A stretch of DNA of 64,000 bases, taken from Hadesarchaea archaeon (lineage in GTDB: Archaea > Hadarchaeota > Hadarchaeia > Hadarchaeales > Hadarchaeaceae). Under the pieces are notes generated by a model. The model was not told the DNA's origin. It did not search any database and saw only the letters and a program-made list of their open reading frames with translations. The position numbers were made by a program, and so were the translations under genes. The stretch covers positions 18,733-82,732 of the forward strand of contig JAPDJH010000002.1 in the NCBI GenBank assembly GCA_029259175.1, given 5' to 3'. Of the stretch, positions 6,615 to 23,781 are shown one piece after another (within the stretch, counting starts at the first letter, position 1; every line of letters begins with the position of its first letter).

Positions 6615-6983
6615 TCAATTAGCTAAATCCTCTTTCAACTTTTCAAGCTCTTGCAAGGTTTTTTCTGCAATGATTTTCTCGTTATTGAAATGTTTTATCA
6701 TCCTTGCCAAACATTTCTTTTTTTCTTCGATATTACCTAGATACTTTGCACAGGCTTCCATGAATTCCTTTGTTCTTTCGACATTGGATTTTACAATTTC
6801 AGGTATTTTTTCGCTGTCATGCCTGACCGCCTGTTGCGGACAAACTTCGTGGCATACACCACAGCGGATACACCCCTCCATGTTTATTCTTGCCTTACCG
6901 CTTTCCATCGATATCGCGTTCACTGGACACTTCTCCGCACATATTCCACAGCCGACGCATCTATCCTCATCAATCCATGGCGT
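6615..6983 (-). CDS. 2x[4Fe-4S] ferredoxin-domain protein with helical C-terminal extension; apparent ACG at the start position
   Basis: The track ORF starts at GTG 6923, which would cut off the first motif CVGCGICAEKCP. The frame stays open upstream to TAG at 7035-7037 with no ATG/GTG/TTG. GAAGGAGGT (6998-6990) lies 6 nt before ACG (6983-6981), giving (T)PWIDEDRCVGCGIC. Confidence 0.6.
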   Translation of the reverse strand, partial: TPWIDEDRCVGCGICAEKCPVNAISMESGKARINMEGCIRCGVCHEVCPQQAVRHDSEKIPEIVKSNVERTKEFMEACAKYLGNIEEKKKCLARMIKHFNNEKIIAEKTLQELEKLKEDLAN

Positions 6984-7034: not shown

Positions 7035-7200
7035 CTACGTGGCCACACATGTCCATTGAAAAGGGGAAGCTAAAACAAATGATTGTGTGATATCGTCGAT
7101 GGTTCTCGCTCATGAGTTTCGTTTGGGACTTCGTGAAGCTGTAAATGAGATCCAACCCACAAGCATTCAGAAATCAGAGGTCATCGTCCACCAGCCTCAA
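7035..7200 (-). pseudogene. Decayed 3' fragment of a paralog of gene 9848-10387
   Basis: About 165 nt aligns by eye with 9848-10015 (roughly three quarters identical). For example, gatgagatccaa(c/t)cca...agcattcagaaa(t/c)cagagg is shared. The fragment carries a 1-nt deletion, 12-nt and 3-nt deletions, and a TGG>TGA change. Confidence 0.65.
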
Positions 7201-7276: not shown

Positions 7277-7675
7277 CTATTTCTCAGCGGTCTGACTCAA
7301 CTTGCTTGGCCCGTAAATCGCAAGTGATTTGTCATAGAAAGAGAGCATTGCCTCGGGAGTCATCGTAAGCGCTTTCGTTGGACACCTCTCAACACACAAT
7401 CCACAAAAACAACATTTTCCCAAATGGATCTGGGGATATGTTTTGCCGTTAAATTTCACCATTTCGATAGCATTATTGGGGCAGACTCTCGAACACATTC
7501 CACAGCCCACACATTTTTCTAAATTTAAGAAATGTCTTCCTCTATAGTCCTTTACGGGTTCTAAAGATTCGCTAGGAAATTTCAGAGTCATCGGCTTTTT
7601 AAAGAGTATTCTAAAAATCACTTTGGCAGGTTTAATCAAACCCATGACGGACTTCAACAAATTCATTTCGATCAC
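7277..7675 (-). CDS. NuoI / hydrogenase 2x[4Fe-4S] subunit-like protein
   Basis: Two intact motifs, CVGCGMCSRVCP and CCFCGLCVERCP. It overlaps the upstream gene by 4 nt. Confidence 0.85.
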   Translation of the reverse strand: MIEMNLLKSVMGLIKPAKVIFRILFKKPMTLKFPSESLEPVKDYRGRHFLNLEKCVGCGMCSRVCPNNAIEMVKFNGKTYPQIHLGKCCFCGLCVERCPTKALTMTPEAMLSFYDKSLAIYGPSKLSQTAEK

Positions 7676-9225
7676 CTATCCATATCGCTCGGGCAGGGAT
7701 CTAAACTCCAGTATATTGCGGGAATGTCAGCCACTTGGGCCCCCTTGGCCAAGTATGAAAATGTCATTAATGTGTGAGAAAAACTCGGTCCCCGCACCTT
7801 TACTCGATATGGTTTGTCAGTTTCGTTGCCCACCATGTAAAAGCATGCCTCTCCCCTTGCAGCCTCGAGGCAAAAACGGGCGTCTCTTTTTGGGATCTTG
7901 CGCGGAAGCTGTTTTCTCGTTTCTCCCTTGGGTATTTTTTCCAACAATTGTTTAATGATCGAAATGCTTTCAGCGATCTCCCCTCTTCTGCACAAAACTC
8001 TGGCGTAGGAGTCCCCTTTCGTTTGTGTCACAATTTCAAAATCGACTTCCGGATATGCCTCGTAGGGTTCATCTTTTCTTATATCGGACTTTACTCCGCT
8101 TGCTCTCAGGTTGGGACCCGTAGTGCCCAGCTCTACGGCTTTTTTGGCGTCGAGTACACCCACACCTTCCGTTCTTTTGATGACCGTGGCATTTTTGAAA
8201 AACAAATCATCATAAAAAACCAGTTTCTTTTGCAAATGGTTGAGCACTCTCGAAATTTTTTCTTCAAATCCTTCAGGGAAATCCCTTCTCACACCCCCAG
8301 GAACAAAATGGCATGGATAAATTCTTCCTCCGGATGCGATCTCGATCAAACGGATAATTTTTTCCCTGTCCCCCCAAGCGATTCTATTCGCGCTCTCAAA
8401 ACCCAAAGCAAACGACATCATCCCTATCCAAGTTATGTGGCTCAGGATTCTTCCGAGCTCCGTCATGATGGTCCGTATGAACTTCGCCCTTTCAGGTGCT
8501 TCGACTCCCGCAATCTTTTCAGCCACGTTAGCATATCCCAGTTCGTAGGAGTAGGGCTCTAGAACACATATCCTGTCAACAAGCATGGCATTTTGTTCAT
8601 GGGTTCTGTATTCCATTAGCTTCTCTATTCCCCGATGGAGGTATCCAGGGTATAGCATCAGCCCGGTCACTTCTTCGCCCGCGCAGTCGATCAAAGCCCG
8701 AAAATGGCCCGAAGCTGGGTGTTGGGGACCAAAAGGCAAGAGAAAGCAGCCTCCCTCTTTTTGTTCGCTGCTGCTTTCATCATAATATTCTCTCTTCACG
8801 TATTCGCGCGTGTCGAAATCCTTTCTCAGCGGGGGAATTTCTTTCCAATCTTCGAGAAAAAGGGGAGAGGGATCCGGATGCTCTTCAAAATTTACTCCAA
8901 ACAGTTCACATATTTCTCTTTCGTGTATCTGTGCTCCCTCCCATATATTAGAGACCGACTCTATCGATGGCGATTCTCTTGGAAGCCTAATCTTGACAAC
9001 CTTCCTACATTTTTTTGCGTGCGACCAGAGGTGATAAAGTATTTCAAACTCTCTTTCATCGGGATAATCCACGCAAGTAACATCTGAAAGATGATCAAAC
9101 CCAGCATCCTTGAGCTGAGATAAAACTTTGCGGAGCTCTTCTTTTTTTACTGAGATGGTTGCGTTTTCTAGGAGCGCTCGAGGCGTCGATCCCTGGAACC
9201 CGGGCTTCAATTCTTCGCTGTTCAT
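7672..9225 (-). CDS. Fused NuoC-NuoD / group-4 [NiFe]-hydrogenase large-subunit-like protein with only half of the Ni-Fe Cys ligands
   Basis: The NuoC part has DHLSDVTCVDYP...HEREICELFG. The NuoD part has PFGPQHPASGHFR and GYLHRGIEK. RICVLEPYS replaces RICGICS, and C-terminal DPCPSDMDR replaces DPCxxCxxR. Confidence 0.85.
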   Translation of the reverse strand: MNSEELKPGFQGSTPRALLENATISVKKEELRKVLSQLKDAGFDHLSDVTCVDYPDEREFEILYHLWSHAKKCRKVVKIRLPRESPSIESVSNIWEGAQIHEREICELFGVNFEEHPDPSPLFLEDWKEIPPLRKDFDTREYVKREYYDESSSEQKEGGCFLLPFGPQHPASGHFRALIDCAGEEVTGLMLYPGYLHRGIEKLMEYRTHEQNAMLVDRICVLEPYSYELGYANVAEKIAGVEAPERAKFIRTIMTELGRILSHITWIGMMSFALGFESANRIAWGDREKIIRLIEIASGGRIYPCHFVPGGVRRDFPEGFEEKISRVLNHLQKKLVFYDDLFFKNATVIKRTEGVGVLDAKKAVELGTTGPNLRASGVKSDIRKDEPYEAYPEVDFEIVTQTKGDSYARVLCRRGEIAESISIIKQLLEKIPKGETRKQLPRKIPKRDARFCLEAARGEACFYMVGNETDKPYRVKVRGPSFSHTLMTFSYLAKGAQVADIPAIYWSLDPCPSDMDR

Positions 9226-9657
9226 CTAGTGTCCCTCGAATCCATTTTCTATTTTCTTCATGAGCATGACTAGCCCGTGACCTATGTTCTCAGGTTTTGG
9301 TGGGCATCCGGTGACCCAGACGTCCACCGGGATGTATTTATCTATGCGCTTGATTGTGGAATAAGAGTCCCAGTACATTCCTCCAGTCATGGGGCAACTC
9401 CCAAGGGCGAGAACATATTTGGGAGACGGCATTTGTTCGTAAATTCTCTTTATACGCGGAAGGGCTTTTTTTGTCACGTAACCAGCTATGATGAGCACGT
9501 CTGCATGCCGGGGGCTCCCCTTGGCCAATATCCCGAAGCGTTCCATGTCGTAACCTGATCCAACCCAAGGAAGCAGTTCTATGAATCCGCAAGCGGTGAA
9601 GTAATTGATAACCCAAAGCGAGCGAGCGCGCGTTTTGTGTTTTATACCCACGGGCAC
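9226..9657 (-). CDS. NuoB / hydrogenase small-subunit-like protein
   Basis: Has TACGFIEL (a single Cys where NuoB has CC), LGSCPMTGG and VTGCPPKPE. GAGGAGG precedes alternative GTG starts at 9657 and 9651. Confidence 0.85.
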   Translation of the reverse strand: MPVGIKHKTRARSLWVINYFTACGFIELLPWVGSGYDMERFGILAKGSPRHADVLIIAGYVTKKALPRIKRIYEQMPSPKYVLALGSCPMTGGMYWDSYSTIKRIDKYIPVDVWVTGCPPKPENIGHGLVMLMKKIENGFEGH

Positions 9658-9847
9658 GCCTCCTCAGTTTTTCATATTATGGTGGGTGAGGGTTTATAAA
9701 GGCTGGGAGCAAAAATCGAGGGTACAAATTCTGATTTTGCCTGCCCACGAGTTCCAGCACGCGCTTATCCTCTAGTTTGAGTTTCACCACTTGTGAACTT
9801 TCTCGTGCCGCCTGAGGAAGCCGAGAACAAAATTGTTATCTCCATCC

Positions 9848-10387
9848 TTACGCTGGCCACACGTGTCCGTGGCAGTGATCGATTGGAAAGGGGAAGCTGA
9901 AAACGATGATCGTGTTGATATTATCAATAGTCCCCGCCCACGAGAGTTCCCTTTCGGACTTGGTGAAGTCGTAGATGAGATCCAATCCATGAGCATTCAG
10001 AAACCAGAGGAGATCGTATGAGTTTTCCGCATATTCCTTGCCGTGAACATCGCATCTCAAAGTCGTCGTCTTGTTTTCCTCATCGAACTCAACGCTGAAG
10101 TTATCGGCAACCACATTGTATTTCTTGTTAAATTGCTCAATTTGGGCGGATTGGAAGCCACTTTGGTTTTCCATGATTTGGGAGAATTGATTTTCATCCC
10201 AGAAGAGAGTTTCCTGATAATGCAGAACCGGTCCATCCGCGACTATCTCGATGTATCTCTCTACGGCGTTTTCTCCCTGCCAAAGTGGGACTGGCTTTCG
10301 TTGGGCAACCCACCAAGCAGAAACACTGATGAGAACAACGCAGATCACTGCAACGATGATAATTTTTCCAGCCATTTTCACTTTCAC
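9848..10387 (-). CDS. Hypothetical protein with N-terminal transmembrane anchor and C-terminal HCHGH motif
   Basis: N-terminus MKVKMAGKIIIVAVICVVLISVSAWWV, C-terminus ...FSFPFPIDHCHGHVWPA. I recognise no family. Confidence 0.6.
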   Translation of the reverse strand: MKVKMAGKIIIVAVICVVLISVSAWWVAQRKPVPLWQGENAVERYIEIVADGPVLHYQETLFWDENQFSQIMENQSGFQSAQIEQFNKKYNVVADNFSVEFDEENKTTTLRCDVHGKEYAENSYDLLWFLNAHGLDLIYDFTKSERELSWAGTIDNINTIIVFSFPFPIDHCHGHVWPA

Positions 10388-10851
10388 ACCTTCCCTTCCA
10401 GCCAGCCAATTCTGACATTGTCCTTCTGGTCAAACTTTGGAACGTATGGTTTGATGTCCAAAAGAGGAGTACCATCAAGCATATCAACGCCTTTCACCTT
10501 GAGGATATTTCCTTCACGCTTTAGTAGCTCCACAATCGTGAGCCCTATTGGGTTTGGCCTGTTAGGGGATCTCGTGGCGAAAACCCCATGAAGAGCATCG
10601 TCTAGGTAAGGTTTTACCAAAAGTCCCAGCGAATCCAAGCGGTGTTCTTTTTTCACAGAGTGCTTCACCGGTTTATGGAACTCGTACAGGATTATGAGGT
10701 GAGAAAAGCCTTCTATGTCTTTCAGCCCCTCCTCATATTCCTTGAAAACCTCGATCTCCCCAATTTCCTCTGACACGTAGGCTTGATGGGGTGCCTCTCC
10801 GTCCTTTTTGTATGGCGTGTGGATTATTCCTATTGGCTTTAGTTTTATCAT
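10384..10851 (-). CDS. trmO: tRNA methyltransferase TrmO (YaeB/UPF0066 family)
   Basis: Has MIKLKPIGIIHTPY, ATRSPNRPNPIG and DGTPLLDIKPY. The ATG at 10851 overlaps the upstream stop (ATGA). Confidence 0.85.
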   Translation of the reverse strand: MIKLKPIGIIHTPYKKDGEAPHQAYVSEEIGEIEVFKEYEEGLKDIEGFSHLIILYEFHKPVKHSVKKEHRLDSLGLLVKPYLDDALHGVFATRSPNRPNPIGLTIVELLKREGNILKVKGVDMLDGTPLLDIKPYVPKFDQKDNVRIGWLEGKV

Positions 10852-11495
10852 TCTACCACAAGCCCTGCCCCACACCTCACGTATTGTTTCGGGAATGCGC
10901 GCGCCAACTCCTTTTTGTATACAGTGCAGTGGCAGGGAGAAATCAACCTAAGGCCCTTTAGAGCGTCGAAATCGCTGAACCCGTGAAAGCCTCCAACGAT
11001 ACCGTATATCTTGCCAATTTTTGATGCTGCGTTTAGGATGCTGCGCACTCCCGGATGAGAGCAGCCCGTGATCACAAACGCGCCTCTTTTGTCCAGACAA
11101 ATCAACGACTGCTCTTTAGTGTATGCGCCCAACTCACCTGTCGTGAATATCTCCTTGCGTATCTGTGTTGGCCCACGGACTTCAACCAACCTCGTTTTTG
11201 CTGGGATCTCGTTTTTTAACCACCTAGAAAACGATGCCAAGGCGTACACGGTAAGATTTGGGTTCACCTCAAGTAGCTCCGATAGCCCACCGGTGTGATC
11301 CCCATGCCCGTGCGACAATACGACAGATTTTATGTTGCTCGGATCTATGCCCAATTTTTCCATGTTATGCAATAAGGCCACACCATCGCCACCCGTGTCG
11401 AACAAGGTGTCGTTGTCGATTAAACAGGAGAAACCCCAGCCCGCTATTAGTCCTTTCTTTAACACTTCATTGTCATAAACCACTGTTATTTTCAT
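10848..11495 (-). CDS. MBL-fold metallo-hydrolase (paralog of 3752-4642)
   Basis: Has SHGHGDHTGG and TGCSHPG. I take the start at MKITVVYDN. Confidence 0.8.
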   Translation of the reverse strand: MKITVVYDNEVLKKGLIAGWGFSCLIDNDTLFDTGGDGVALLHNMEKLGIDPSNIKSVVLSHGHGDHTGGLSELLEVNPNLTVYALASFSRWLKNEIPAKTRLVEVRGPTQIRKEIFTTGELGAYTKEQSLICLDKRGAFVITGCSHPGVRSILNAASKIGKIYGIVGGFHGFSDFDALKGLRLISPCHCTVYKKELARAFPKQYVRCGAGLVVE

Positions 11496-11585
11496 CAGTA
11501 CCAGCTTCCGATTGGGAATCTTCTGTAATTTAATGAGCACAGTTAAGTTTATATGTAATTATGTGCATATGCTAATAATGGAGGA

Positions 11586-12074
11586 ATGGAAGAGATGGCT
11601 TACGGTCAAGGGGGTTGGAGAAGGGGAAGAAGAAACATGTATTACCTCACAGGCATGCCGGGATGGATGAGGTTTGGATATCCCCCGTGGTGGATGGGCG
11701 GTCCAGCAGGAACGCCGGCCGCCCAACCTCTGGTGCAGGCTGGGCAGATACCACAACCTTACTCGACGCAAGCACCAGCCCAAGGTTCGGTTCCCTCTCA
11801 CGAGAACTGCGCCAATTACAGGGATGGATTCTGCACGTTATATGGCATCCCTATAGATCCCAACACTCCTGTGTGTCCAAACTTTACGCCGAAGAATATC
11901 TCTTCAACACCACCAATGCCATCAACCTCACCCTCGTTCCAAGTCCCTGTTGGTTTTCCTCAAGCACAAATGTCCAAAGACCAAGAAGTCCAGATGTTGG
12001 AAAGTCAGGCGAGAATGGTGGAGCAACAGCTCGAGCTGATCAAGAAAAGGCTTGAAGAACTCAAAAGGAGGTGA
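11586..12074 (+). CDS. DUF5320-family protein
   Basis: The N-terminus is Gly/Pro/aromatic-rich (GWRRGRRNMYYLTGMPGWMRFGYPPWWMG). The tail is a coiled coil, DQEVQMLESQARMVEQQLELIKKRLEELKRR. Confidence 0.7.
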   Translation: MEEMAYGQGGWRRGRRNMYYLTGMPGWMRFGYPPWWMGGPAGTPAAQPLVQAGQIPQPYSTQAPAQGSVPSHENCANYRDGFCTLYGIPIDPNTPVCPNFTPKNISSTPPMPSTSPSFQVPVGFPQAQMSKDQEVQMLESQARMVEQQLELIKKRLEELKRR

Positions 12075-12079
12075 GATAG

Positions 12080-12496
12080 ATGCCGTTTGGAATGGGCCCC
12101 TATGGCTGGATGGGAATGTACGGGTATCCATACTGGGGGTGGAGATGCAGGTGGTTCCCGTGGTTGCCCAGATGGTGGTGGACTGGAATATACGGTCCCA
12201 TCACACCTTTCACGGGAGCACCATGGATGCCTTACAGCTCATATAGCTCCTACGCTCTAACGACTACACCATGGACAGCCTTCTATGCGCCCTACTACGC
12301 ATCCTCCTACAGCCCGTATGCACCGCCAATCGCGGCAATGCCGAACGTGGCGTACCCGTTCCCATATCTAGCCGGTGCAGAGGCTCCCCAAATTCCGAGG
12401 GAACAGGAAATAGAGATGCTCGAGAGCCAAGCAGCAGCGCTCCAGCAGCAATTGGATCAGATCAAGAAGAGGCTTGAGGAGCTCGGCAGAATATAG
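12080..12496 (+). CDS. DUF5320-family protein, extremely Trp/Tyr/Pro-rich variant
   Basis: N-terminus MPFGMGPYGWMGMYGYPYWGWRCRWFPWLPRWWWTGIYGP, tail EQEIEMLESQAAALQQQLDQIKKRLEELGRI. Confidence 0.7.
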   Translation: MPFGMGPYGWMGMYGYPYWGWRCRWFPWLPRWWWTGIYGPITPFTGAPWMPYSSYSSYALTTTPWTAFYAPYYASSYSPYAPPIAAMPNVAYPFPYLAGAEAPQIPREQEIEMLESQAAALQQQLDQIKKRLEELGRI

Positions 12497-12621
12497 GACT
12501 CAACGGTCGGCGCTGTTCAGGTCGCTCTTTCTCATCCCAAATCCGGCTGGTTGGGCTAGGAGATGTCATTGTTTAAATTCTTGAGTCGATAGGGGGTTAG
12601 AGAAGAGGAGGCAAGGCTAAA

Positions 12622-13989
12622 ATGAAAATCTTACTTCTTTCTCCTCCAACCACGAGTGCGGTAAAAGCAGTTGTGGGAACAACGGGTCCGCCTCTCGGTT
12701 TGGCTTATCTAGCATCCATGGTGAGAGAAGAGCATGAGGTACGTATAGTCGATTCGCTTGCCGAGGGCTATGATCACGGAGATGTGAAAAGAATAATGAA
12801 AGGGTACGATCCCGATGTGGTTGGAATAACTGCAACCACCTCGATGATGCCCGATGCCTATCGAGTCGCGAGAATGGCGAAAAGGCTCAATGAAAACGTA
12901 AAAGTAGTAATGGGTGGCCCTCATGCGACATTTTTGCCAGAAAGAACCTTTAGAGAATGTCCTTATTTGGACTTCATAGTGAGAGGAGAAGGGGAAGTCA
13001 CTTTCAAGGAACTTGTTGATGCTTTAGAGGAAAATAAGAACCCTTCCAACATTTTGGGTCTGAGTATAAACATGGATGGCAAAGTAAAGAACAATCCCTC
13101 GCGACCCCTTATAGAAAACCTCGACACAATTCCTATGCCTTCTTACGATTTGCTCCCCATGGAAAAGTATCAAGTTGACGGAGTTAGATTCGGAACTTTG
13201 ATGACGAGTAGAGGCTGCCCGTTCAGGTGTGTATTCTGCTCATCTTCTCTTCTATTCGGTAACAGATGGAGAGGGCATAGCGATTCGAGGGTGATTGAGG
13301 AGCTGAAATATCTTCGGGAAGAATACAAGATTCAGGAGATAGAGTTCTTGGACGATACCTTTACTTTAAATAAGAGAAGAGCACTGAGAATAGCTAAAAG
13401 GATTGTAAAAGAAGGGCTCGATGTTTCGTGGTCTGCCTCCTCGAGGGTCGACCTGTTCACGGATGAAGTTGCTGAAGCTATGAAAAGAGGCGGATGCCAC
13501 ACAATATATTTCGGCATTGAATCCGGTTCCTCAAAGACCCTCGAGTTCATCGACAAGAGGATAACTCCTGAGCAATCGATTTCTGCAGTGAAGAAAGCAA
13601 AAAAGCATAAACTCCAAGCCTTAGGAGCATTCATTATAGGATTTCCTGAGGAGAGTAGAGAAGACGTAGAGAAAACGATAAAATTTTCAAAAAAGGTGGG
13701 TGTGGATTACGCACAGTTCACCATAGCCACACCCTATCCGGGAACGAGGTTATGGGATTATGCTTTGTCTAAGAAACTTATACGGACTTTTGATTGGAAA
13801 AAGTACACCACATTGGATCCGGTGATGAGATTGAAAAATTTCACCACCAAGCAAATAAGGAAGCTCTTTCGGAAGACATACGTGAGCTTCTACCTGCGCC
13901 CGTCCTATGTGATTAAAGACCTGATTTTAAGAAAAGGTTTTACGTTTAGAAGGGCTATTTCAGGAATCATAAAATGGTTTAATCGATAA
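12622..13989 (+). CDS. B12-binding-domain radical SAM protein
   Basis: The N-terminus is a Rossmann-like B12-type domain (MKILLLSPP...VVGITATT...VVMGGPHAT), followed by SRGCPFRCVFC. Confidence 0.85.
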   Translation: MKILLLSPPTTSAVKAVVGTTGPPLGLAYLASMVREEHEVRIVDSLAEGYDHGDVKRIMKGYDPDVVGITATTSMMPDAYRVARMAKRLNENVKVVMGGPHATFLPERTFRECPYLDFIVRGEGEVTFKELVDALEENKNPSNILGLSINMDGKVKNNPSRPLIENLDTIPMPSYDLLPMEKYQVDGVRFGTLMTSRGCPFRCVFCSSSLLFGNRWRGHSDSRVIEELKYLREEYKIQEIEFLDDTFTLNKRRALRIAKRIVKEGLDVSWSASSRVDLFTDEVAEAMKRGGCHTIYFGIESGSSKTLEFIDKRITPEQSISAVKKAKKHKLQALGAFIIGFPEESREDVEKTIKFSKKVGVDYAQFTIATPYPGTRLWDYALSKKLIRTFDWKKYTTLDPVMRLKNFTTKQIRKLFRKTYVSFYLRPSYVIKDLILRKGFTFRRAISGIIKWFNR

Positions 13990-14139
13990 ACTGGGCTTCA
14001 AATCGAGTCTTCAGCGCAAGCGCAGATAGAGGCAAATACAGACTGGAACAATGAATTTTGCCACTCATGTGAGGTTCTCTTAAATCGACCAAGCGCATAT
14101 TTATTTTGTGCAATCGCTGAAAAGAAATTCTGAGCGAGT

Positions 14140-14976
14140 GTGAGGCGAGTGGAAGAAAAGATGAGGGAGATGCAGGAGCTGGAAAGGCGCATCAAAGCAC
14201 GGATGGCGAAAATCAAGCATAAGCTGGCGATCCTGAGCGGGAAAGGGGGCGTAGGGAAAAGCACCATCGCCGCGAACTTGGCAGTAGGGCTGGCACAGCG
14301 CGGATGCAAGGTTGGCATCTTGGACGCGGATATCCACGGGCCGAGCATACCGAAGATCCTTGATTTGGAGAATCGAGAGGTAGCTGTTGGACCGAATGGC
14401 ATGCTTCCGCTTGCCGGGCCTTTTGGGACAAAAGTTTTCTCAATTGAGTTTCTGCTCGATAGCAGGGAGACTCCAGTTATCTGGCGAGGTCCTCTAAAAA
14501 TGCGGGCGCTTCAACAGTTTCTGGCAGATGTGGAGTGGGGAGAACTCGACTGTTTTATAGTTGACCTGCCTCCCGGAACGGGCGATGAACCACTAAGTAT
14601 AATGCAGCTGATTCCTAGCATAAGCGGGGTCGTGATAGTCACCGTACCGTCGGAGGTTTCGCAGATAGTGGTGAAAAAAGCGATTACCTTCGTGAGGACG
14701 GTCAACGCGCCCCTGATCGGAGTGATTGAAAACATGAGCGGATTCGTGTGTCCGAATTGCGGTTCTGAGTTCAACATTTTGGGAGCTGGAGGGGGAAGAA
14801 AAATCTCTGAAGAAATGGGCGTTCGATTTCTGGGAAGAATTCCGATAGATCCGAATGTGTGTGAGGACTCGGACAGAGGCGTTCCCTTCATAATCGGACA
14901 TCCAGACTCGCCCGCCACCAAGGCCTTTTACCAAATAGTGGAAAAGATAGAAGAACTCTTGGACAAGGAGAGGTGA
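14140..14976 (+). CDS. Mrp/NBP35 (ApbC) family Fe-S cluster carrier ATPase
   Basis: Has SGKGGVGKST (Walker A), DLPPGTGD and CPNCG. The exact start is uncertain. Confidence 0.9.
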   Translation: MRRVEEKMREMQELERRIKARMAKIKHKLAILSGKGGVGKSTIAANLAVGLAQRGCKVGILDADIHGPSIPKILDLENREVAVGPNGMLPLAGPFGTKVFSIEFLLDSRETPVIWRGPLKMRALQQFLADVEWGELDCFIVDLPPGTGDEPLSIMQLIPSISGVVIVTVPSEVSQIVVKKAITFVRTVNAPLIGVIENMSGFVCPNCGSEFNILGAGGGRKISEEMGVRFLGRIPIDPNVCEDSDRGVPFIIGHPDSPATKAFYQIVEKIEELLDKER

Positions 14977-15575
14977 GGGGAGCGTTCATGGTCAGCTGTG
15001 CTTTCTGTGAGAAAAAATCTTGCGCGAGGGGCGAGCCGTGTCCGGTTGGTCTGCCGCTGAAGAAACATGCTGTGGGAGAATATCGAAAGAGAGCGAATTC
15101 GAGGCTTTACCGGAAGTCAAGCGCGCTTGAAATAGAAGGGTACATGAAGTACCCGCGGGTGCGTGAGCTGATCGAGCTGGCGAAGGACATGGGATGGAAG
15201 AAGCTAGGAATAGCTTTCTGCATCGGGCTCTCGGAGGAAGCGAGGAAACTTCAGGAAGTTTTGGAAACCCACGGGTTTGAGGTTCACTCGGTGGTGTGCA
15301 AGGTTGGAAGTGTTAAAAAACGCGAACTGGGCGTCTCCCGGAGGGATGATGAGACCGCGTGCAACCCGATTCTGCAGGCAATGGTTCTCAACCAGGTGAA
15401 AACCGACCTCAACATCATTGTGGGGCTCTGCTTGGGACATGACATTCTCTTCCAACGATACTCGGAAGCGCCCACCACAACGCTCGTGGTCAAGGACAGA
15501 GTGCTGGCTCACAATCCGCTCGGAGCCCTCTACTCTAGGTATCATCTCAAGAAACTGATGGGGAGGAAAAGTTGA
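14973..15575 (+). CDS. DUF1847-family Cys-rich protein
   Basis: N-terminus CAFCEKKSCARGEPCP, with later CNP...GLCLGHD. Its GTG overlaps the Mrp stop (GTGA). Confidence 0.6.
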   Translation: MRGAFMVSCAFCEKKSCARGEPCPVGLPLKKHAVGEYRKRANSRLYRKSSALEIEGYMKYPRVRELIELAKDMGWKKLGIAFCIGLSEEARKLQEVLETHGFEVHSVVCKVGSVKKRELGVSRRDDETACNPILQAMVLNQVKTDLNIIVGLCLGHDILFQRYSEAPTTTLVVKDRVLAHNPLGALYSRYHLKKLMGRKS

Positions 15576-16342
15576 GGTTCTCGGTGGTTTACGGTCCTGT
15601 TTCTTCGTGGAGGCTCGGCAGGTCCCTCGGCGTGGATCCGATATGCGCGGCCGAGAAGGTCTGCTCCTTCGATTGCGTTTACTGCTCCCTTGGCCGGACC
15701 ACCGAGAAAATTATTGAGCGCAAGATATTCGTTCCGACCGAGGCTGTGGAAAAATCGCTCGGGAAGGTTCTGCCCAAAGTCAAGCCCGATGTGATAACCT
15801 TCTCCGGAACCGGCGAACCAACGCTGGCGAAAAACTTGGGCGAGATGATAGAAAGCGTCAGGCGGCTCTCAAAGCTTCCCATTGCTGTTCTCACAAACTC
15901 TTCTCTCCAGTTCAAAAAGGAAGTCAGGCGGGATCTCGTGAAAGCGGACATCGTTAAGGGAAAACTGGACGCGTCAAACGCAGAGCTTTTTGCTCGGGTG
16001 AACCGGCCGCACAAGGGAATCGCGTTTTGGAAAGTTTTGAAGGGCTTGAAAAGGTTTCGAAACGAGTTCGCAGGAAAGTTTGCCTTGGAAGTGATGTTTG
16101 TTCCTCACAACAAGGAGCTTGCGGCCGACATCGCAGAGATGGTCAAAGAGATAGAACCAGATGAGGTTCATATCAACACGCCACTGCGGCCGAGCCCCGT
16201 AGCCCCGCTCAGCCGGGCGGAGCTGGAGGAGGTGGAAAAGAGCTTCCGCGGGCTCAACTACATATCAGTTTACAAGACCAAAAAACCTCCCAAGATTTCG
16301 AGAGTGATTGGGAAGGAGAAAATAAAGCGGCTTAAGCGGTGA
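15572..16342 (+). CDS. Radical SAM protein (paralog of 5644-6579)
   Basis: Has GPVSSWRLGRSLGVD and CSFDCVYC. Its TTG overlaps the upstream stop (TTGA). Confidence 0.85.
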   Translation: MRFSVVYGPVSSWRLGRSLGVDPICAAEKVCSFDCVYCSLGRTTEKIIERKIFVPTEAVEKSLGKVLPKVKPDVITFSGTGEPTLAKNLGEMIESVRRLSKLPIAVLTNSSLQFKKEVRRDLVKADIVKGKLDASNAELFARVNRPHKGIAFWKVLKGLKRFRNEFAGKFALEVMFVPHNKELAADIAEMVKEIEPDEVHINTPLRPSPVAPLSRAELEEVEKSFRGLNYISVYKTKKPPKISRVIGKEKIKRLKR

Positions 16343-16578
16343 GGGTGTAAAATGAAGATACAACTTGCTCACGTTCTGATTTTATTGTTGCGTGTATAGG
16401 AACAAGGTTTGCTTTGGAACCGCTTTGGATGTTTCATCACGATTCCGTTCAGTTCTGGGTTTTGACATCAATTGAGATCGGTGCTAAAATCGCAATCCTC
16501 ATTGCTTAGGGAACGATAGAACGCTAAATACGTATCACTAATCAAAGAAAAAAGGAATTCATTACAAAGGTGAACTGA

Positions 16579-16809
16579 CTATTTCAAAAGCCGCTTTATC
16601 TCTTCCACGGTCGGAACCCTTCCTGCCACTTTGACCTTTCCGTCCACCACAAGTGCAGGCGTTGAAACTATTCCTCTCCTTGCTATTTCGACGGCGTCGT
16701 ATACGTGGGACACTTCCGCCTTTATTCCCAGCTCCTTCACTGCCTTTCTGGCGTTCTCTTCCATTTTCCTGCACTTGGGGCAACCTATTCCTAATACCTC
16801 TATTTTCAT
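16579..16809 (-). CDS. Thioredoxin-fold small redox protein (MTH895/TM0996-like)
   Basis: MKIEVLGIGCPKC...TPALVVDGKV. Confidence 0.8.
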   Translation of the reverse strand: MKIEVLGIGCPKCRKMEENARKAVKELGIKAEVSHVYDAVEIARRGIVSTPALVVDGKVKVAGRVPTVEEIKRLLK

Positions 16810-17183
16810 GTTCTCACCTCCGGTCTGTATTTTTTAAAGTGTTTGACGATGCTCTTCCCAAAAGGGGTGAGAGAATATATGAAGTAATTCCCCAAACGCT
16901 CGGAGTGCACGAGGCCACCCTTCTTGAGTTTGGAAAGATGGTATGAGCATCTGGAATAAGAGCTCCCAATCACTTTTCTCAACATGCAGACGCACATCCG
17001 TTGACGTTTCAATGCATAAAGGATCTTCACCCGCTGGGGGTCCGAGAGAGTGTTCATAACCTTGGCCACCATCCTTATCTCATCTCGAGGAAGCTCCTTG
17101 ATGATTCGCTCGAACCCTCCTTTTTCCTCGACTTCCACCCTGATTTCTTCAGGAATCACGAATCTCTTTTTCACTCCCGCCAT
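16806..17183 (-). CDS. ArsR/SmtB-family transcriptional regulator
   Basis: Has LSDPQRVKILYALKRQRMCVCML and a wHTH-like region ..YHLSKLKKGGLV. It overlaps the downstream gene by 4 nt. Confidence 0.8.
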   Translation of the reverse strand: MAGVKKRFVIPEEIRVEVEEKGGFERIIKELPRDEIRMVAKVMNTLSDPQRVKILYALKRQRMCVCMLRKVIGSSYSRCSYHLSKLKKGGLVHSERLGNYFIYSLTPFGKSIVKHFKKYRPEVRT

Positions 17184-18203
17184 CTACAACCCCCCCAGCG
17201 CTAAGAAACACAAACCAGATATTATCGCCACGATCACCGCAAGAAACGCATACGTACCGACGACTCTCCATCCCACGATACGTGAAACCCCTAGCATAGA
17301 GGGAATGGAGGCCATGGGAGCACCTATCAGGAAAGCCAGGGCGGCAGCAGGGGTCATCCCTAAATCCAAGAGGGACTTGACAAAAAATACCTCTACTAGT
17401 GTGGGCGTGTAGGTGGGAACCCCTAAGGCTCCTCCCAGCACTACTCCTTTGGTTCCAGTCAACCATCTTGCCACCACATCCTCGGGGAGGTAAGCCTCGA
17501 TGTAGGAGACGAAGAACACCCCTGCCAACAAATAAGGAATGACTCGCTTAGTGAGATCCCAAGCCACCCTTCCTGCTTCCCAGCACTTTTCCTCGAACCC
17601 CATCCGTCCGATTTCCACTGCGCGCTCGGAGGCCGTCTTCCCGAACTTTTCCTCTATACTTCGACCCCACGGGGTTCGGGCCACCGCTGCTCCGATAATG
17701 ATCGCACCAACGAACGAGAATATCAATCTTGCGAGTGCGAGCTTGACGGATATTATCTCAGAAGTAAAGATTAGCGCCATGACGTTTGCAGCAGGTGCCA
17801 TCAGTAAGAAAGATATTGCAGGACCTATGCCCGCTCCCGCCATCATTATCCCACCAAAGATTGGTATCATTGCACACGAACAAACGGTAAACACAGGTGC
17901 CAAAGCCGCAGCGAGAAAATAGTTCTTTATTTTTTTGCTCGAGAAATGCTGCATCATTTTCTCTTTTGGGATGAAGGCTGAGAAGAATCCTCCGAGCATG
18001 AAAGCAAAAAGTAATGCTCCCCACGCACGAGTCATGTAGCTGAAAGTGTAAACAAGAGGAACCTCCCACACAGGATAGTTGTCTAGGTCTTCATACACGA
18101 AGACTGGTGTTAGGGTAGAGCCAGTGACTTTGGGATACACGATGATAACAAGTCCGAGAAGCAACAGGCCTATTGTTAAGAGTGCTTTCTTCATTTTTCT
18201 CAA
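17184..18203 (-). CDS. UPF0718/ArsP-like permease
   Basis: Multi-TM protein with a TVCSCAMIP motif. It sits in an operon with the ArsR and thioredoxin-like genes. Confidence 0.75.
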   Translation of the reverse strand: MRKMKKALLTIGLLLLGLVIIVYPKVTGSTLTPVFVYEDLDNYPVWEVPLVYTFSYMTRAWGALLFAFMLGGFFSAFIPKEKMMQHFSSKKIKNYFLAAALAPVFTVCSCAMIPIFGGIMMAGAGIGPAISFLLMAPAANVMALIFTSEIISVKLALARLIFSFVGAIIIGAAVARTPWGRSIEEKFGKTASERAVEIGRMGFEEKCWEAGRVAWDLTKRVIPYLLAGVFFVSYIEAYLPEDVVARWLTGTKGVVLGGALGVPTYTPTLVEVFFVKSLLDLGMTPAAALAFLIGAPMASIPSMLGVSRIVGWRVVGTYAFLAVIVAIISGLCFLALGGL

Positions 18204-18260
18204 GTATTTAAAAAATTTTTGAAATATTTAAATCTTTTGGGATAGGGGAAGAGCTGCTCA

Positions 18261-18872
18261 TCATCTTTTGCTCCCTTTGATGACGTACAGAGCTGCCCAG
18301 TCTTTTTTATCGGTTGTGAAAACATCTTCTCCACGAATTCCCAAAAAGTATTCAGCTTTTGTGTGAAAATGTTTAAAAACAAGGTTTTCAATTTCTTTCA
18401 AATTCCTATGCCGGATTTTCCTGAAGTAGGAACCTCTCCTTTTCACACGGGTTTTGAAATATTTTGACTCCGGATTCAACAGCATGAGGATAAATTTGCC
18501 ACTGGGCGTGAGAACTCTTGCCACTTCCTCCACCGCCTTCTTAGGATTTTTCAGAAACTCCAGAGTTGTGACCATAAAGGCCCCATCGAACGAGCTGTTG
18601 CGAAAAGGGAGTTCTTCCGCGCTTCCAATAACGAAATGTTTGTTGCTCCGCTTTTTCGCCTCTCTCAGCATCGCTTCTGAGATATCGAGACCGAAAACAT
18701 TCAATTCAGGTAGCGCCTGTTCGAAAACGCCGATACCGCATCCGATGTCGAGAATCTTGTTTCGCCCTTTCAGTTCCTTTCGTAGATATCTCACTTCTCG
18801 TTGTAACACCCGCTTTCCGAATCTACTCTCGTAGAACTTTTTGAACTTCCCAACTTCATTGAAGCTTGTCAA
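18261..18872 (-). CDS. Class I SAM-dependent methyltransferase
   Basis: Has ILDIGCGIG (motif I) and PSGKFILML. The start is TTG. Confidence 0.8.
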   Translation of the reverse strand: MTSFNEVGKFKKFYESRFGKRVLQREVRYLRKELKGRNKILDIGCGIGVFEQALPELNVFGLDISEAMLREAKKRSNKHFVIGSAEELPFRNSSFDGAFMVTTLEFLKNPKKAVEEVARVLTPSGKFILMLLNPESKYFKTRVKRRGSYFRKIRHRNLKEIENLVFKHFHTKAEYFLGIRGEDVFTTDKKDWAALYVIKGSKR

Positions 18873-18974
18873 ACCCGTCTCCCGGTTTAATCAGCAGGTA
18901 AATCATATATAAACCGTGCAAATGAACATAAAATAAAGATTTCAGGAAAATGGGTGTGTTGTGGGTGTGCAAAA

Positions 18975-19286
18975 ATGGCGGTGATGGAAATCAGTGTGAT
19001 CCCAATGGGAACCTCTGCCTCGGTGAGCGGTTTTGTCGCCGGGGCAGTTGAGCTCATCAAAAAAAGCGGGTTGCGATATCGGCTCACCGCCATGGGGACG
19101 ATCGTGGAGGGAGAGGTCGACCAGCTTTTGAAGCTCGCGGGAGAGGTTCACAAAAATGTGCTGGATCGAGGTGCCCCCCGCGTGGTCACTCTAATCAAAC
19201 TGGACGACCGGAAAGACAAACCTCTGTCTGCTGAGGGAAAAATTCGGTCCGTGCAATCCAAGCTGGAGGGATTGAATGCGGGCTGA
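18975..19286 (+). CDS. MTH1187/YkoF-family (DUF77) protein
   Basis: MAVMEISVIPMGT...GLRYRLTAMGTIVEG. Confidence 0.75.
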   Translation: MAVMEISVIPMGTSASVSGFVAGAVELIKKSGLRYRLTAMGTIVEGEVDQLLKLAGEVHKNVLDRGAPRVVTLIKLDDRKDKPLSAEGKIRSVQSKLEGLNAG

Positions 19287-19698
19287 GGTTCGCCACGTGG
19301 CTGGCCTAAGCTTTGTGGGGAAAGCCGATTCCAACCACTGGGTCGCGATGGACGGACCCACCGCTTGGGGGGGCGCGGAAGCCGGGTCAAAACCCATGGA
19401 ACTTATCTTGATAGCCTTGGGTGGATGCACAGGAATGGATGTGGTGAGCCTTCTCAAAAAAATGAGGGTGGCGTTCAGTGATTTCAAAGTAGAAATCTCC
19501 GCCGAAAAGAAAGAAGAGCATCCAAAAACGTTTACCAAAGTTCACATCAGATACGTCATCAAGAGCACCGCTCCCAAGCAGAAAATAGAGAAAGCTGTCG
19601 AGCTCTCACAGAAAAGATACTGTCCGGTTTCTGCGATTCTCCGACAGTCAGCTGAAGTTACCTATGAAATTGTTGTGTTGCCGCCGGGAGAAGGCTGA
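19276..19698 (+). CDS. OsmC-family peroxiredoxin-like protein
   Basis: Has PMELILIALGGCTGMDV and RYCPVSAIL. Confidence 0.85.
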   Translation: MRAEVRHVAGLSFVGKADSNHWVAMDGPTAWGGAEAGSKPMELILIALGGCTGMDVVSLLKKMRVAFSDFKVEISAEKKEEHPKTFTKVHIRYVIKSTAPKQKIEKAVELSQKRYCPVSAILRQSAEVTYEIVVLPPGEG

Positions 19699-19703
19699 GG
19701 AAG

Positions 19704-20480
19704 ATGACCACGGTAATCGAGGATCTGCTGTCCGCCGTCGGAAGAAGGAAGGAATTTATCGCCGGGCTCAAACTCTCAAAAGTTTCCGTGAGCCTGTGCT
19801 ACACCGCCGTGATGCTCAGCAATGGATACGTGGGACTCTGTCATACACCCACCGAGGATATCCCCCACGTGCACACCCGCCGGACGAGGAACTTCCACGA
19901 GATGGACGTGGAAGAGGCAGTCTCGCTTGCATCCTCCACGGATTTCTTGGAGAGGGTGGTGGGAATCGCCACCGTTAATGCGCTGTCGCAATATCTCATG
20001 GATCAGCAGAACTATCCGCGCGAGATGGAACGCGATGTTTTCGACGCTCTGGATTTGCGCGGGTGCGAGGAGGCCGTCGTCGTGGGATACATCCGACCAC
20101 TGGTTGGCAAGCTAAGAGGAAAGGTGAAAACCGTGAGGGTCTTCGAGCGCAACCCCCAGCTCCGGGGCGACGCCCTGCCTGACACACTTGCGGACCAGTT
20201 CCTTCCTCGGGCCGACGCGGTGGTCATTTCAGGTTCTGCAGTAGTAAACGGGAGCATCGATCGGTTGCTCGACCTCTCCAGGAATGCTCGAATCGTCGCG
20301 TTGGCCGGGCCCACAGCGAGTTTTGTCCCAGAACCTCTCTTCCGAAGGGGGGTCAGCGTTATAGCGGGTGTTTGGGCGAAAGGCGACGCGGCGGTGCGGG
20401 CGGTGGCGGAGGCAAAATCTTTCAGAGAAATCAAACCCTTGGTAAAAAAATACGTGATCAGAAAAAGTGGTAAAGCGTAA
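19704..20480 (+). CDS. DUF4213/DUF364 Rossmann-like protein (putative metal chelation family)
   Basis: Has GLCHTP and ADAVVISGSAVVNGSIDRLLDL...ALAGPTASF. Confidence 0.7.
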   Translation: MTTVIEDLLSAVGRRKEFIAGLKLSKVSVSLCYTAVMLSNGYVGLCHTPTEDIPHVHTRRTRNFHEMDVEEAVSLASSTDFLERVVGIATVNALSQYLMDQQNYPREMERDVFDALDLRGCEEAVVVGYIRPLVGKLRGKVKTVRVFERNPQLRGDALPDTLADQFLPRADAVVISGSAVVNGSIDRLLDLSRNARIVALAGPTASFVPEPLFRRGVSVIAGVWAKGDAAVRAVAEAKSFREIKPLVKKYVIRKSGKA

Positions 20481-20502
20481 CGTGTTGGGTTTTTGTCCAG
20501 AG

Positions 20503-21333
20503 CTAACCGAACACCAAGCTTGCTGCTATTCCAACGAGCAAACCGAAGACCACGTTGAAAATCTTCACCAGCACCGAATCCCGTATGGTGTAGGAAAGCA
20601 GCGGAAGCATGCCGTGTCCGTCCTGAACCACTGAGCTCGTCAGCAACACGGAAAACGGAATGGCTCCGTCCGCGTAGAGAAGTACGAACGGGATGTGGGG
20701 TCCGGAGCCGGGTATCAGCCCAACTACGGCAGCGGAGAAAATCAGCAGGGGGAGGGGAAGACGTGAGATGGTGGGCTCCAAGTTCGGGATGAGGCGGATC
20801 ACGAGCAGGGCCCCCAGCAACCACGCGAAGAGTTTGGGGAGGTGCTGCTTGATGATGTGGTTGAAAACGTGCTCCTTCACGAAGTGGCGGAGCTCGGTGC
20901 GCTCACGCTCGATGCGATGAACTTTGATCACGCACTTCTTGTCTCTGGTTATTCCGAATTTCCGAACGATCGAGTCCGTCAGGAAACCGCCCAAGATCCC
21001 GAGCACAAACAACAGGGCGAACAGCGCCAGCGCAGTCGCAGGAAATTTGGCCAACATCACGAACGCTTCATCCCCCGAAGTAGAAATCATGCAGGCTGTT
21101 ATTGCCCCCATGCTCAGGAATCCGTGCACGTAAAGCGAAACGCTGGCAAAAGCCCCAACACAGCCCGGAGTGGCTCCGAGGAAAGAGGCGAGGAGATACT
21201 GCCTTAGCGGTCCTCGGGTCATCCACTTGCTCATGCGCTTCTGGGTCCGGAGTTCGATGTATTCGATCACCGTCATCAGAACGAACACTATGGCTAAGAT
21301 GTGGATGGTTTCGCGCAGGACTTCGATTATCAT
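20503..21333 (-). CDS. Putative 10-TM metal transporter (ArsP_2-like)
   Basis: Polytopic membrane protein immediately downstream of, and abutting, a DtxR/MntR-type regulator gene. Confidence 0.6.
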   Translation of the reverse strand: MIIEVLRETIHILAIVFVLMTVIEYIELRTQKRMSKWMTRGPLRQYLLASFLGATPGCVGAFASVSLYVHGFLSMGAITACMISTSGDEAFVMLAKFPATALALFALLFVLGILGGFLTDSIVRKFGITRDKKCVIKVHRIERERTELRHFVKEHVFNHIIKQHLPKLFAWLLGALLVIRLIPNLEPTISRLPLPLLIFSAAVVGLIPGSGPHIPFVLLYADGAIPFSVLLTSSVVQDGHGMLPLLSYTIRDSVLVKIFNVVFGLLVGIAASLVFG

Positions 21334-21771
21334 TCACCTCACCTCTTCACACTTGGGATCCGGGAAGATCGGCTTGTTGCAGGGGCACAGGCGGGGGTGC
21401 CCATAGGCCCGGCATATGGAATTGACCAGTTCCTCCGAAACGTGGTAGTCCAGCCTGGAGGCTTCTTGGCAGGCCTTCTCCTTATCATGTCCCAAGAAGT
21501 TCGCTAGCAAGACTTCAAGGATCCGGTGCTTTCTCAGGAGCTTTTGGGTTATTTTGATACCCTTGGGGGTGAGTTCTACTCCACGATACCGGTGGTGGAT
21601 GACGAGCTTTTTCCTAGAGAGGTTCCGGAGGACCTCCGTCACGCTGGCTGGGCGAACCCCGAAGAACTTGGCTAAAGAGGTGGTTTTTACTCTTCTAGAC
21701 TCCTCATACTGCTGTCTGTAGATGAACTTGAGGTGCTTCGCCTCGTTCTCGGTCACTTCAATTTTTGTCAT
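21334..21771 (-). CDS. DtxR/MntR-family metal-dependent transcriptional regulator
   Basis: Has a wHTH region (SLAKFFGVRPASVTEVLRNLSRKKLV), KLLRKHRILEVLL, and a Cys/His-rich tail. Confidence 0.85.
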   Translation of the reverse strand: MTKIEVTENEAKHLKFIYRQQYEESRRVKTTSLAKFFGVRPASVTEVLRNLSRKKLVIHHRYRGVELTPKGIKITQKLLRKHRILEVLLANFLGHDKEKACQEASRLDYHVSEELVNSICRAYGHPRLCPCNKPIFPDPKCEEVR

Positions 21772-21778
21772 CAAAAAA

Positions 21779-21795
21779 TTTAGGTAATCCCTAAA
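21779..21795. promoter_or_regulatory. Candidate DtxR-type operator (inverted repeat TTTAGG-N5-CCTAAA) between a TATA-like box and the regulator ATG
   Basis: tttaggtaatccctaaa was read directly. On the minus strand, TTTTTATTTA (21801-21792) lies about 26 nt upstream of ATG 21771. Confidence 0.45.
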
Positions 21796-21985
21796 TAAAA
21801 AGATCCATCATGAGGGAAGGACCGACTTACACTATGGGGAGGAATGGGCGCTCTCATGGGGCGATTCCTGATCAGGCCCCGAAGCTTCACAAGAAAGTGG
21901 ACACCGAGCGGCAACGGCCTCGTTCGTTTTGTTTATAGGGAGTTCTAGTTATGAAAATGATGAAGTACTCGCCGGGGGTTGGCAG

Positions 21986-22648: not shown

Positions 22649-22657
22649 GCGGCTTGT

Positions 22658-23777: not shown

Positions 23778-23781
23778 TGGC

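Follow-up and report, generated by a model that had tools for sequence, protein, structure and literature searches.

A 64,000-nucleotide stretch of contig JAPDJH010000002.1 from a Hadesarchaea archaeon (the whole of which is called the window below) harbors three adjacent minus-strand genes for a predicted redox module of the complex I-related kind, and no genes for membrane subunits were found near them. The module consists of a NuoB-like small subunit, a large subunit in which NuoC and NuoD are fused, and a NuoI-like iron-sulfur subunit (Table 1); the first and the second open reading frame (ORF) abut, and the second and the third share 4 nt. A TATA-like box, TTTATAAA, which occurs as a single copy in the window (chance expectation 0.36), lies 36 nt upstream of the GTG of the small-subunit gene, and a GAGGAGG Shine-Dalgarno sequence stands between the box and the start. 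The coordinates of the ORFs and the uniqueness of the box agree with the original prediction of three abutting or overlapping genes served by a TATA-like box of their own. Translation of the small subunit is likely to begin at GTG 9651 rather than at GTG 9657, because the former is indicated by the Shine-Dalgarno spacing and by an orthologue of 141 aa. The public call of this gene (L001 9680-10000, corresponding to 9226-9546 in the window) gives a protein of 106 aa in which the first cluster ligand, C23, is missing; therefore the automated annotation would under-report the iron-sulfur site.

Table 1. Module genes and adjoining features, in window coordinates.
Feature	Position	Strand	Remarks
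2x[4Fe-4S] ferredoxin-like protein, helical C-terminal tail	6615..6983	-	just downstream of the module; candidate redox partner
Decayed duplicate of the 3' end of the transmembrane-protein gene	7037..7190	-	directly downstream of nuoI
NuoI/MbsN-like subunit	7277..7675	-	132 aa, two CxxCxxCxxxCP motifs
Fused NuoC-NuoD (MbsK-MbsL-like) large subunit	7672..9225	-	517 aa
NuoB/MbsJ-like small subunit	9226..9657	-	143 aa from GTG 9657, 141 aa from GTG 9651
Putative promoter region: TTTATAAA at 9693-9700 and GAGGAGG Shine-Dalgarno	9658..9700	-	
179-aa protein with a single N-terminal transmembrane helix, no Pfam family	9848..10387	-	3' end is the source of the repeat
TrmO_N-domain protein and metallo-beta-lactamase (MBL)-fold protein	10384..11540	-	upstream of the module here, downstream in L095/L096

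The domain composition of the three proteins is clear from profile searches. The small subunit is matched by Pfam PF01058 (Oxidored_q6; 2.8e-25) and by the NCBIfam model NF005012 (1.8e-57; score 193.5, cut-off 116). PF00329 (Complex1_30kDa) and PF00346 (Complex1_49kDa) are joined in the single chain of the large subunit, the C domain covering approximately residues 24-142 and the D domain 161-517; the chain carries the motifs GPQHPASGHF, DRICVLEP and DPCPSDMDR, and the last of them is followed by the stop codon, without a C-terminal extension. The NuoI-like subunit is recognized by Fer4 families and by the NuoI models of NCBIfam at 1e-28 to 1e-30, under the trusted cut-offs, and its two cysteine motifs correspond to the medial and the distal [4Fe-4S] cluster. 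The NuoD model NF004739 is passed as well (score 380, cut-off 360); the NuoB and NuoD models of NCBIfam do not discriminate proteins of the Mbs type from Nuo proteins.

The best matches among proteins of known structure come from MBS (formerly MBX), the membrane-bound sulfane sulfur reductase of Pyrococcus furiosus (PDB 6U8Y; Yu et al., 2020; PMC7684303), namely 6u8y_L (MbsL, 2e-88), 6u8y_J (MbsJ, 6.5e-47) and 6u8y_K (MbsK, 1.2e-16). They outrank the matches to complex I, NDH-1, membrane-bound hydrogenase (MBH) as well as formate hydrogenlyase (FHL), and the match to MbsL runs at full length to the C-terminus of the large subunit. In the AlphaFold model of the large subunit the D domain is confident, and Foldseek superposes it on 6u8y_L with a TM-score of 0.90 and 42% identity. 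The NuoC part of the model, with a predicted local distance difference test (pLDDT) score of about 30, is unreliable because the alignment lacked C domains, and it was left out of the analysis.

The residues of the former [NiFe] site point in the same direction. DRICVLEP aligns to RICVPEP of MbsL and DPCPSDMDR to DNCPPDIDR, with Glu and Asp at the positions of the second cysteines, as in MbsL; the same sites read RMDYLH and DPVMGDVDR in Nqo4. When the large subunits of related loci, 103 in number, were aligned together, true hydrogenases had RICGIC and DPCxxC, and a bacterial clade lacked any cysteine there. Thus two of the four [NiFe] cysteines are kept in the large subunit, C220 and C511, which match C85 and C385 of MbsL, and the protein ends in ...DR, with nothing that could be cleaved. 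The only cysteines of the small subunit are C23, C88 and C118, and in the HMMER alignment they correspond one-to-one to C28, C93 and C123 of MbsJ, while F20 stands at the position of the non-ligand C25 of MbsJ and G24 at that of the second cysteine in the CC pair of NuoB/NdhK.

The alignments to MbsL, Nqo4 and true hydrogenases therefore rule out a misalignment, and the statements of the original prediction that only the first cysteine of each hydrogenase motif is kept and that the small subunit retains three of the four canonical cysteines proved correct. Since two of the four [NiFe] cysteines are combined with a three-cysteine proximal cluster, the large subunit is assigned to the Mbx/Mbs type, and the non-NiFe active site that the prediction suggested was the right call too. 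These traits do not single out this locus: Glu and Asp do occupy the second-cysteine positions, but this is a family-wide feature of MbsL and the Asp is also found in complex I, and the three-cysteine small subunit (F-T-A-C-G-F-x-E), although present as described, is common to relatives without membrane genes beside them (orphan) and to relatives with such genes (membrane-linked). The half-degenerate site (RICVLEP, CPSDMDR) is the family-wide MbsL signature, and the three genes are predicted to encode a complete MBS-type peripheral arm, with equivalents of MbsJ, of an MbsK-MbsL fusion and of MbsN.

Because of the MbsL signature and of exactly three cluster cysteines of the MbsJ type, the module is predicted to be neither a hydrogenase nor a quinone reductase. 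One could object that a real group 4 [NiFe] hydrogenase, or a quinone- or F420-linked Q-module of Nuo or Fpo, would also produce a weak match to the Pfam family NiFeSe_Hases (6.2e-06), a NuoD score over the cut-off and an FpoD score of 327 bits, and that a gene of the HycI protease adjoins the orphan set in L002. However, a true hydrogenase is contradicted by the loss of half of the Ni-Fe cysteines, by the lack of a cleavable extension and by the small subunit, which has ACGF without CxxC where true hydrogenases have CNGCD. A quinone site is contradicted by Val221 in the place of the quinone ligand Tyr87 of Nqo4 and by the change of the tandem CC to CG; His38 of Nqo4 falls in an alignment gap, and a conserved His is found two residues further on in the clade of the window (GPQHPASGHF). 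All three Fpo models failed, with 327 bits for FpoD (cut-off 600), 82 for FpoC (cut-off 220) and 74 for FpoI (cut-off 180). This alternative is the least probable of those considered here, and we give it hardly any weight. The HycI gene of L002 was also regarded as a possible sign of hydrogenase maturation and was rejected, as HycI trails true [NiFe] complexes elsewhere and there is no extension to cleave.

The properties of MBS itself are well described. C28, C93 and C123 of MbsJ hold the proximal [4Fe-4S] cluster, whose fourth iron, not ligated by cysteine, is the proposed site of polysulfide reduction; C25 of MbsJ and C85 and C385 of MbsL are dispensable for activity; and a soluble assembly of MbsJKLN obtained from the 100,000 g supernatant, C-MBS, reduces dimethyl trisulfide with an artificial donor (PMC7684303). 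The module in the window has the same four peripheral subunits J, K, L and N, keeps the first cysteine of each [NiFe] motif (RICVPEP/RICVLEP, CPPDIDR/CPSDMDR) together with the three-cysteine proximal cluster, and likewise lacks an equivalent of the quinone ligand Tyr87. It differs from MBS in that K and L are fused, that the small subunit is without even the non-ligand C25, and that the beta1-beta2 loop reads ASGHF rather than ATENF (SGNF in other clades of the family), the overall identity being 42%. Moreover, the Pyrococcus furiosus operon is contiguous and comprises 13 genes, whereas no mbsA-H' or mbsM genes (Mrp-like and NuoH-like) are found near the module, and the arm of the membrane-linked relatives is simpler and Nuo-like, consisting of A, H, J, K and a pair of antiporter-like subunits. 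With C-MBS the module shares the subunit set and the lack of membrane subunits, which makes C-MBS a functional precedent for this natural locus; but C-MBS is a laboratory construct in a host that also makes the full complex, whereas the arrangement in the window is natural, conserved and under purifying selection.

With the Q-module of complex I/NDH-1, in which a C-D fusion also occurs (E. coli, Aquifex), the module has the fold and the kinds of subunits in common, and the last [NiFe] position is Asp in both; the NCBIfam models of NuoB and NuoD are passed as well. The Ehr (energy-converting hydrogenase related) complexes were reportedly defined, by Marreiros and co-workers in 2013, together with their membrane subunits. 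By description only, they resemble the module in having group-4-related large subunits that lack the [NiFe] cysteine ligands, and they differ from it in that the window has no membrane subunits and that the best matches of the module are to Mbs and not to an unclassified group.

The search for a membrane arm covered the window and an extension of 10 kb at either end, for which public contigs of the same organism were used. Hidden Markov models (HMMs) of NuoH, NuoL, NuoM/N, NuoK, NuoJ and NuoA were built from the operons of relatives, and they gave zero matches in the 64-kb window and in either extension; Mrp-like genes were likewise not found there. A hydrophobicity scan of all ORFs of the window revealed only ArsP-type permeases and rhomboids as large polytopic proteins, while one extension encodes a WD40 protein and unknown proteins, and the other carries ribosomal genes and genes of histidine biosynthesis. 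The claim that membrane subunits are missing within about 10 kb can therefore be extended to about -10/+64 kb around the module, and the HMM scan of the extensions found no membrane operon just outside the window. In a search with a NuoH profile of the near clade, none of the best 120 matches listed was placed on a contig of the same size as that of the window, which is weak evidence.

The same arrangement recurs among relatives. We collected large-subunit homologues with their contigs, and also 80 loci from species-representative genomes, and marked the B, C, D and I genes and those of the membrane families in each; a locus was counted as membrane-linked if NuoH or an antiporter-like gene was present within 10 kb, and as orphan if none was present and at least 4 kb of flank was available on both sides. 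The split-gene loci with the MBS-type 2-Cys signature are membrane-linked in 27 of 41 cases, usually in the order J-K-L-N-A-B-C-D-I-H, and orphan in 14 of 41. Single-chain NuoI-NuoB-NuoD fusions are orphan at 9 of the 12 assessable loci and accompanied by membrane genes at 3, which brings the orphan total to 23 of 53 assessable loci. In a neighbour-joining tree the orphan state is scattered across the family, with MbsL of Pyrococcus furiosus nested inside, and the subclade of the window (the window, L010 and L011) is entirely orphan. The closest relatives, L095 and L096 (84% and 79% identity), are orphan too, on contigs of 4.7 kb, and they are the only compared loci that share the C-D fusion with the window.

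Two side observations concern this data set. The NuoI-NuoB-NuoD chains are about 660 aa long and have no NuoC (L032 9131-11122 and about 20 other loci, P0070-P0117); most combine a complex-I-type CC motif with an MbsL-type 2-Cys large-subunit part, and the labels of their metagenome-assembled genomes (MAGs) are Bathyarchaeia or Asgard. The titles of other MAGs (Dehalococcoidales, Eubacteriales, Thermotogae and Saccharibacteria; loci L016-L093) clash with their archaea-like genes, and these bin labels are untrustworthy.

Could the module be a non-functional relic of a former mbs/nuo operon that was left behind after a rearrangement? Such an explanation would fit with the decayed duplication that brackets the module and with its position relative to the MBL, TrmO and transmembrane-protein genes, which differs from that in the closest relatives. 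However, the three ORFs are intact and all Fe-S ligands are present, the genes have a promoter-like element of their own, and the orphan arrangement is kept in divergent lineages. In addition, the ratio of nonsynonymous to synonymous divergence (dN/dS) between the window and L095/L096 lies in the range of 0.05-0.07 for B, of 0.10-0.13 for CD and of 0.07-0.13 for I, at a dS of about 0.7-1.0 (1.85 for NuoI against L096). Therefore the genes are maintained by selection, which largely refutes a relic; the remnant of the flanking gene, in turn, decayed over a period comparable to the divergence of the module. Thus we consider a relic very improbable.

Relatives of the module are also found in settings that look cytoplasmic by their gene content. 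At four loci (L083, L089, L091 and L094) an orphan B-C-D-I set is followed in one operon, which spans 8376-14639 in L083, by a HdrA-MvhD fusion, a HdrC-like protein and a HdrB-like protein. The HdrA-like flavoprotein of about 780 aa is fused to an MvhD (FlpD) domain, the HdrB-like protein has a CCG domain, and none of the four loci contains membrane subunits. These operons appear to represent a cytoplasmic architecture that resembles MvhAGD-HdrABC of methanogens, in which the redox module is wired to Hdr through MvhD, with an MBS-type module in the place of the hydrogenase; the difference is that a group-4/complex-I-type arm without a [NiFe] site is used, and not a group 3c hydrogenase. A GltD/SudA-like NAD(P)H-linked subunit accompanies the orphan module of L021 and also many membrane-linked loci. 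No Hdr genes were found within reach of the module in the window. Taken together, the recurrence of orphan loci and the operons that link an orphan module to Hdr speak for a role in the cytoplasm. The unusual point is that the module is encoded, conserved and selected without a nearby membrane arm, and that related loci of archaea are commonly in the same state, some with a connection to Hdr.

A second membrane-free cluster was noticed in the Hadarchaeota relatives L010 (1050-5055) and L011 (960-4992). It combines a true four-cysteine [NiFe] large subunit (ERICGFCS, DRCISC) and a NuoB+Fer4 fusion with a Fer4_11 protein, a 221-aa NuoC-like protein and a CCG (HdrB-like) protein, and it is probably a soluble group-4-like hydrogenase with a Hdr-type subunit.

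The reading that we consider most likely, and nevertheless hold tentatively, is that the module is a cytoplasmic Fe-S reductase which receives electrons from ferredoxin and acts on sulfane or disulfide sulfur, and which would be the equivalent in nature of the soluble C-MBS made by engineering. That the module is soluble, that its donor is ferredoxin and that it acts on sulfane sulfur is inferred. The module would be expressed from its own promoter and would function as a cytoplasmic unit that has no ion-pumping membrane arm of its own. The NuoI-like subunit, with its two [4Fe-4S] clusters, would take up electrons from reduced ferredoxin and hand them on to the NuoB-like subunit with the proximal [4Fe-4S] cluster. 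In the proximal cluster one iron would be free because there are only three cysteine ligands, and C220 and C511 of the large subunit would lie next to this cluster. This site-differentiated cluster could then reduce an S-S bond in polysulfide, an organic tri- or polysulfide, a persulfide or a related disulfide, as in MBS of Pyrococcus furiosus, and the reaction would serve as an electron sink or in sulfur handling and would not itself be energy-conserving. As a variant, the module may plug into a cytoplasmic partner encoded elsewhere, Hdr-like or GltD-like, as it does in relatives.

Named homologues of FtsY, with identities of up to 76%, indicate that the host is a divergent representative of Hadarchaeota. 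Besides a thermosome and an ADP-forming acyl-CoA synthetase, the window encodes an indolepyruvate:ferredoxin oxidoreductase (IOR) and an aldehyde:ferredoxin oxidoreductase (AOR); therefore the organism can make reduced ferredoxin, and these enzymes could supply it to the module. The adjacent ferredoxin-like protein, homologues of which directly adjoin the module in L047 and L088, may participate. The reading frame of this protein has ACG where its homologues have ATG (MPW...), preceded by a well-spaced GGAGG, and its first canonical start, GTG 6923, would remove the first cluster motif; it could be either that the non-canonical start is used or that the gene is inactivated.

Several points weigh against a soluble reductase. 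Orphan and membrane-linked members of the near clade are equal in subunit length and have parallel conservation profiles, and a comparison of 9 orphan with 6 membrane-linked sequences over the four subunits found no residues or regions that discriminate the groups. The beta1-beta2 loop (PFGPQHPASGHF) is invariant in both groups; in MBS, MBH and complex I it is one of three loops that make up the coupling element at the membrane anchor (PMC7684303). A module that had left the membrane might be expected to drift at this loop, and the N-terminal amphipathic stretch is kept in the NuoI-like subunit as well. The substrate is extrapolated from a protein of 42% identity and should be regarded as provisional, and the part of the genome that was inspected amounts to about 85 kb.

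Thus it could be that the module is the peripheral arm of an ordinary membrane-bound, MBS/MBX-like complex which oxidises ferredoxin and pumps ions, and that its membrane arm is encoded elsewhere and perhaps shared. We rank this possibility second, following the soluble reductase closely, and the lack of any sequence difference between orphan and membrane-linked modules keeps it alive. It is in line with relatives of 62-63% identity (BLASTP) that stand in complete J-K-L-N-A-B-C-D-I-H operons (L004, L007, L019, L022 and L026), and with the Hadarchaeota-labelled locus L023, where NuoH is 2.4 kb away from the module. In L088 the distance from an otherwise orphan module to the first membrane-type genes is about 9 kb, and in L002 an orphan set lies 3.5 kb from a complete complex of the true [NiFe] hydrogenase type. 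Split nuo/ndh gene sets are known in other organisms, and complex-I-type genes are scattered in some genomes, as is the case with cyanobacterial ndh. However, a distant membrane arm has to be reconciled with the membrane-gene-free span around the module and with an orphan state that is found in five of the five members of the subclade of the window (the window, L010, L011, L095 and L096) as well as in the wider family. Furthermore, no headless membrane arm was found in the fetched loci, as the arms found there carry B, C, D and I genes of their own, and the Hdr-linked operons show that this type of module is used in cytoplasmic complexes.

The residue comparison is not decisive on solubility. 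One difference is possibly telling: the first cysteine of the large subunit is changed to Asn or Asp in 4 of the 6 membrane-linked loci of the near clade (L007, L022, L023 and L026; a small and phylogenetically dependent sample), whereas none of the 12 orphan or short-flank loci has lost it.

The original prediction had suggested modelling the three subunits with and without the neighbouring transmembrane protein. The protein is unlikely to be an anchor, as it is absent from orphan loci beyond the two closest relatives, even beside which its homologue has 60% identity in one case and is undetected in the other. With no Pfam family and fast evolution (dN/dS 0.18), it was rejected as the membrane anchor of the module.

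A broader interpretation, which we regard as possible but rather doubtful, is that MBS-type arms form a widespread, undescribed class of natural soluble polysulfide/disulfide reductases, with a [4Fe-4S] cluster as the catalyst, in Hadarchaeota, Bathyarchaeia, Thermoplasmata-like and Asgard archaea. The class would include free-standing B-C(D)-I modules, single-chain I-B-D proteins and MvhD-wired, electron-bifurcating HdrABC complexes in which the module replaces the hydrogenase, and its members could either have left the membrane secondarily or still represent the soluble redox module that is assumed to have united with an Mrp antiporter at the origin of the complex I lineage. A search of the literature, not exhaustive, found neither natural orphan B-C-D-I modules of the Mbs/Nuo type nor Hdr-linked ones.

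MBS, MBH and complex I are textbook cases of redox chemistry coupled to ion pumping, and it is currently thought that in their evolution a soluble redox module was fused with an Mrp antiporter (PMC8165549). If the module of the window is indeed soluble, a conserved free-standing head of the MBS type would show that the redox module is viable alone, and the Hdr-linked and single-chain versions would strengthen this case. It would also offer a small, soluble and expressible system for the study of S-S reduction by a site-differentiated [4Fe-4S] cluster. Matches to NuoBCDI in subsurface archaea are routinely taken for evidence of respiration by such a complex; if a large share of them belongs to the cytoplasm, too much energy conservation is predicted in metabolic reconstructions of these organisms. 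If, on the other hand, the membrane arm is merely encoded elsewhere, the finding is an ordinary one.

The surroundings of the module have a history of their own. A direct repeat (7037-7190 and 9865-10017) that brackets the module derives from the last approximately 150 nt, or about 50 codons, of the transmembrane-protein gene; in pairwise alignment the copies are about 80% identical (81-82% for the families D1 and D4), spaced by about 2830 nt and disrupted by frame-breaking indels. The closest relatives have the arrangement [DUF5320 intergenic]-B-CD-I-MBL-TrmO-TM, where TM is the transmembrane-protein gene, whereas the window has [DUF5320 intergenic]-MBL-TrmO-TM-B-CD-I-TM remnant. Most simply, this gene order could be explained by a tandem duplication of the unit that was followed by deletions. 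A mobile cassette, for which the direct repeat might be taken as an insertion signature, was rejected, as the comparison with L095/L096 indicates that the same neighbours were reshuffled locally.

The module lies in a low-GC stretch of about 3.6-19.8 kb, with a GC content of about 0.41-0.53 (roughly 0.47) compared with about 0.55-0.60 (0.57) in most of the remaining window. Neither tRNA genes nor an integrase nor terminal or bounding repeats, the markers of a horizontally transferred island, were found around this stretch, and GC is low further to the left too, in L100. DUF5320, ParA/CbiA-type ATPases with Fer4 and Nitro_FeMo-Co (NifX-like) proteins recur near orphan modules, namely at 11586-16342 of the window and in L011/L012, and other recurrent neighbours are DUF134, DUF1847 and radical S-adenosylmethionine (SAM) or B12-radical SAM genes. 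They may hint at metallocluster handling, or may reflect lineage synteny rather than a functional link.

Two further regions of the window deserve a remark. An 817-aa protein encoded at 53590-56043 on the minus strand consists of a full AOR (AFOR_N + AFOR_C) and a C-terminal domain of the orotidine 5'-monophosphate decarboxylase/HUMPS family. Finally, the region 16560-24400 resembles a metal/arsenic-resistance cluster, in which thioredoxin_3, an ArsR-type helix-turn-helix protein, an ArsP_1 permease, a SAM methyltransferase and an ArsP_2 permease are accompanied by an Fe-dependent repressor, a thioredoxin-domain protein and a second ArsP_1 gene that is split in two (23208-23777 and 23782-24372).

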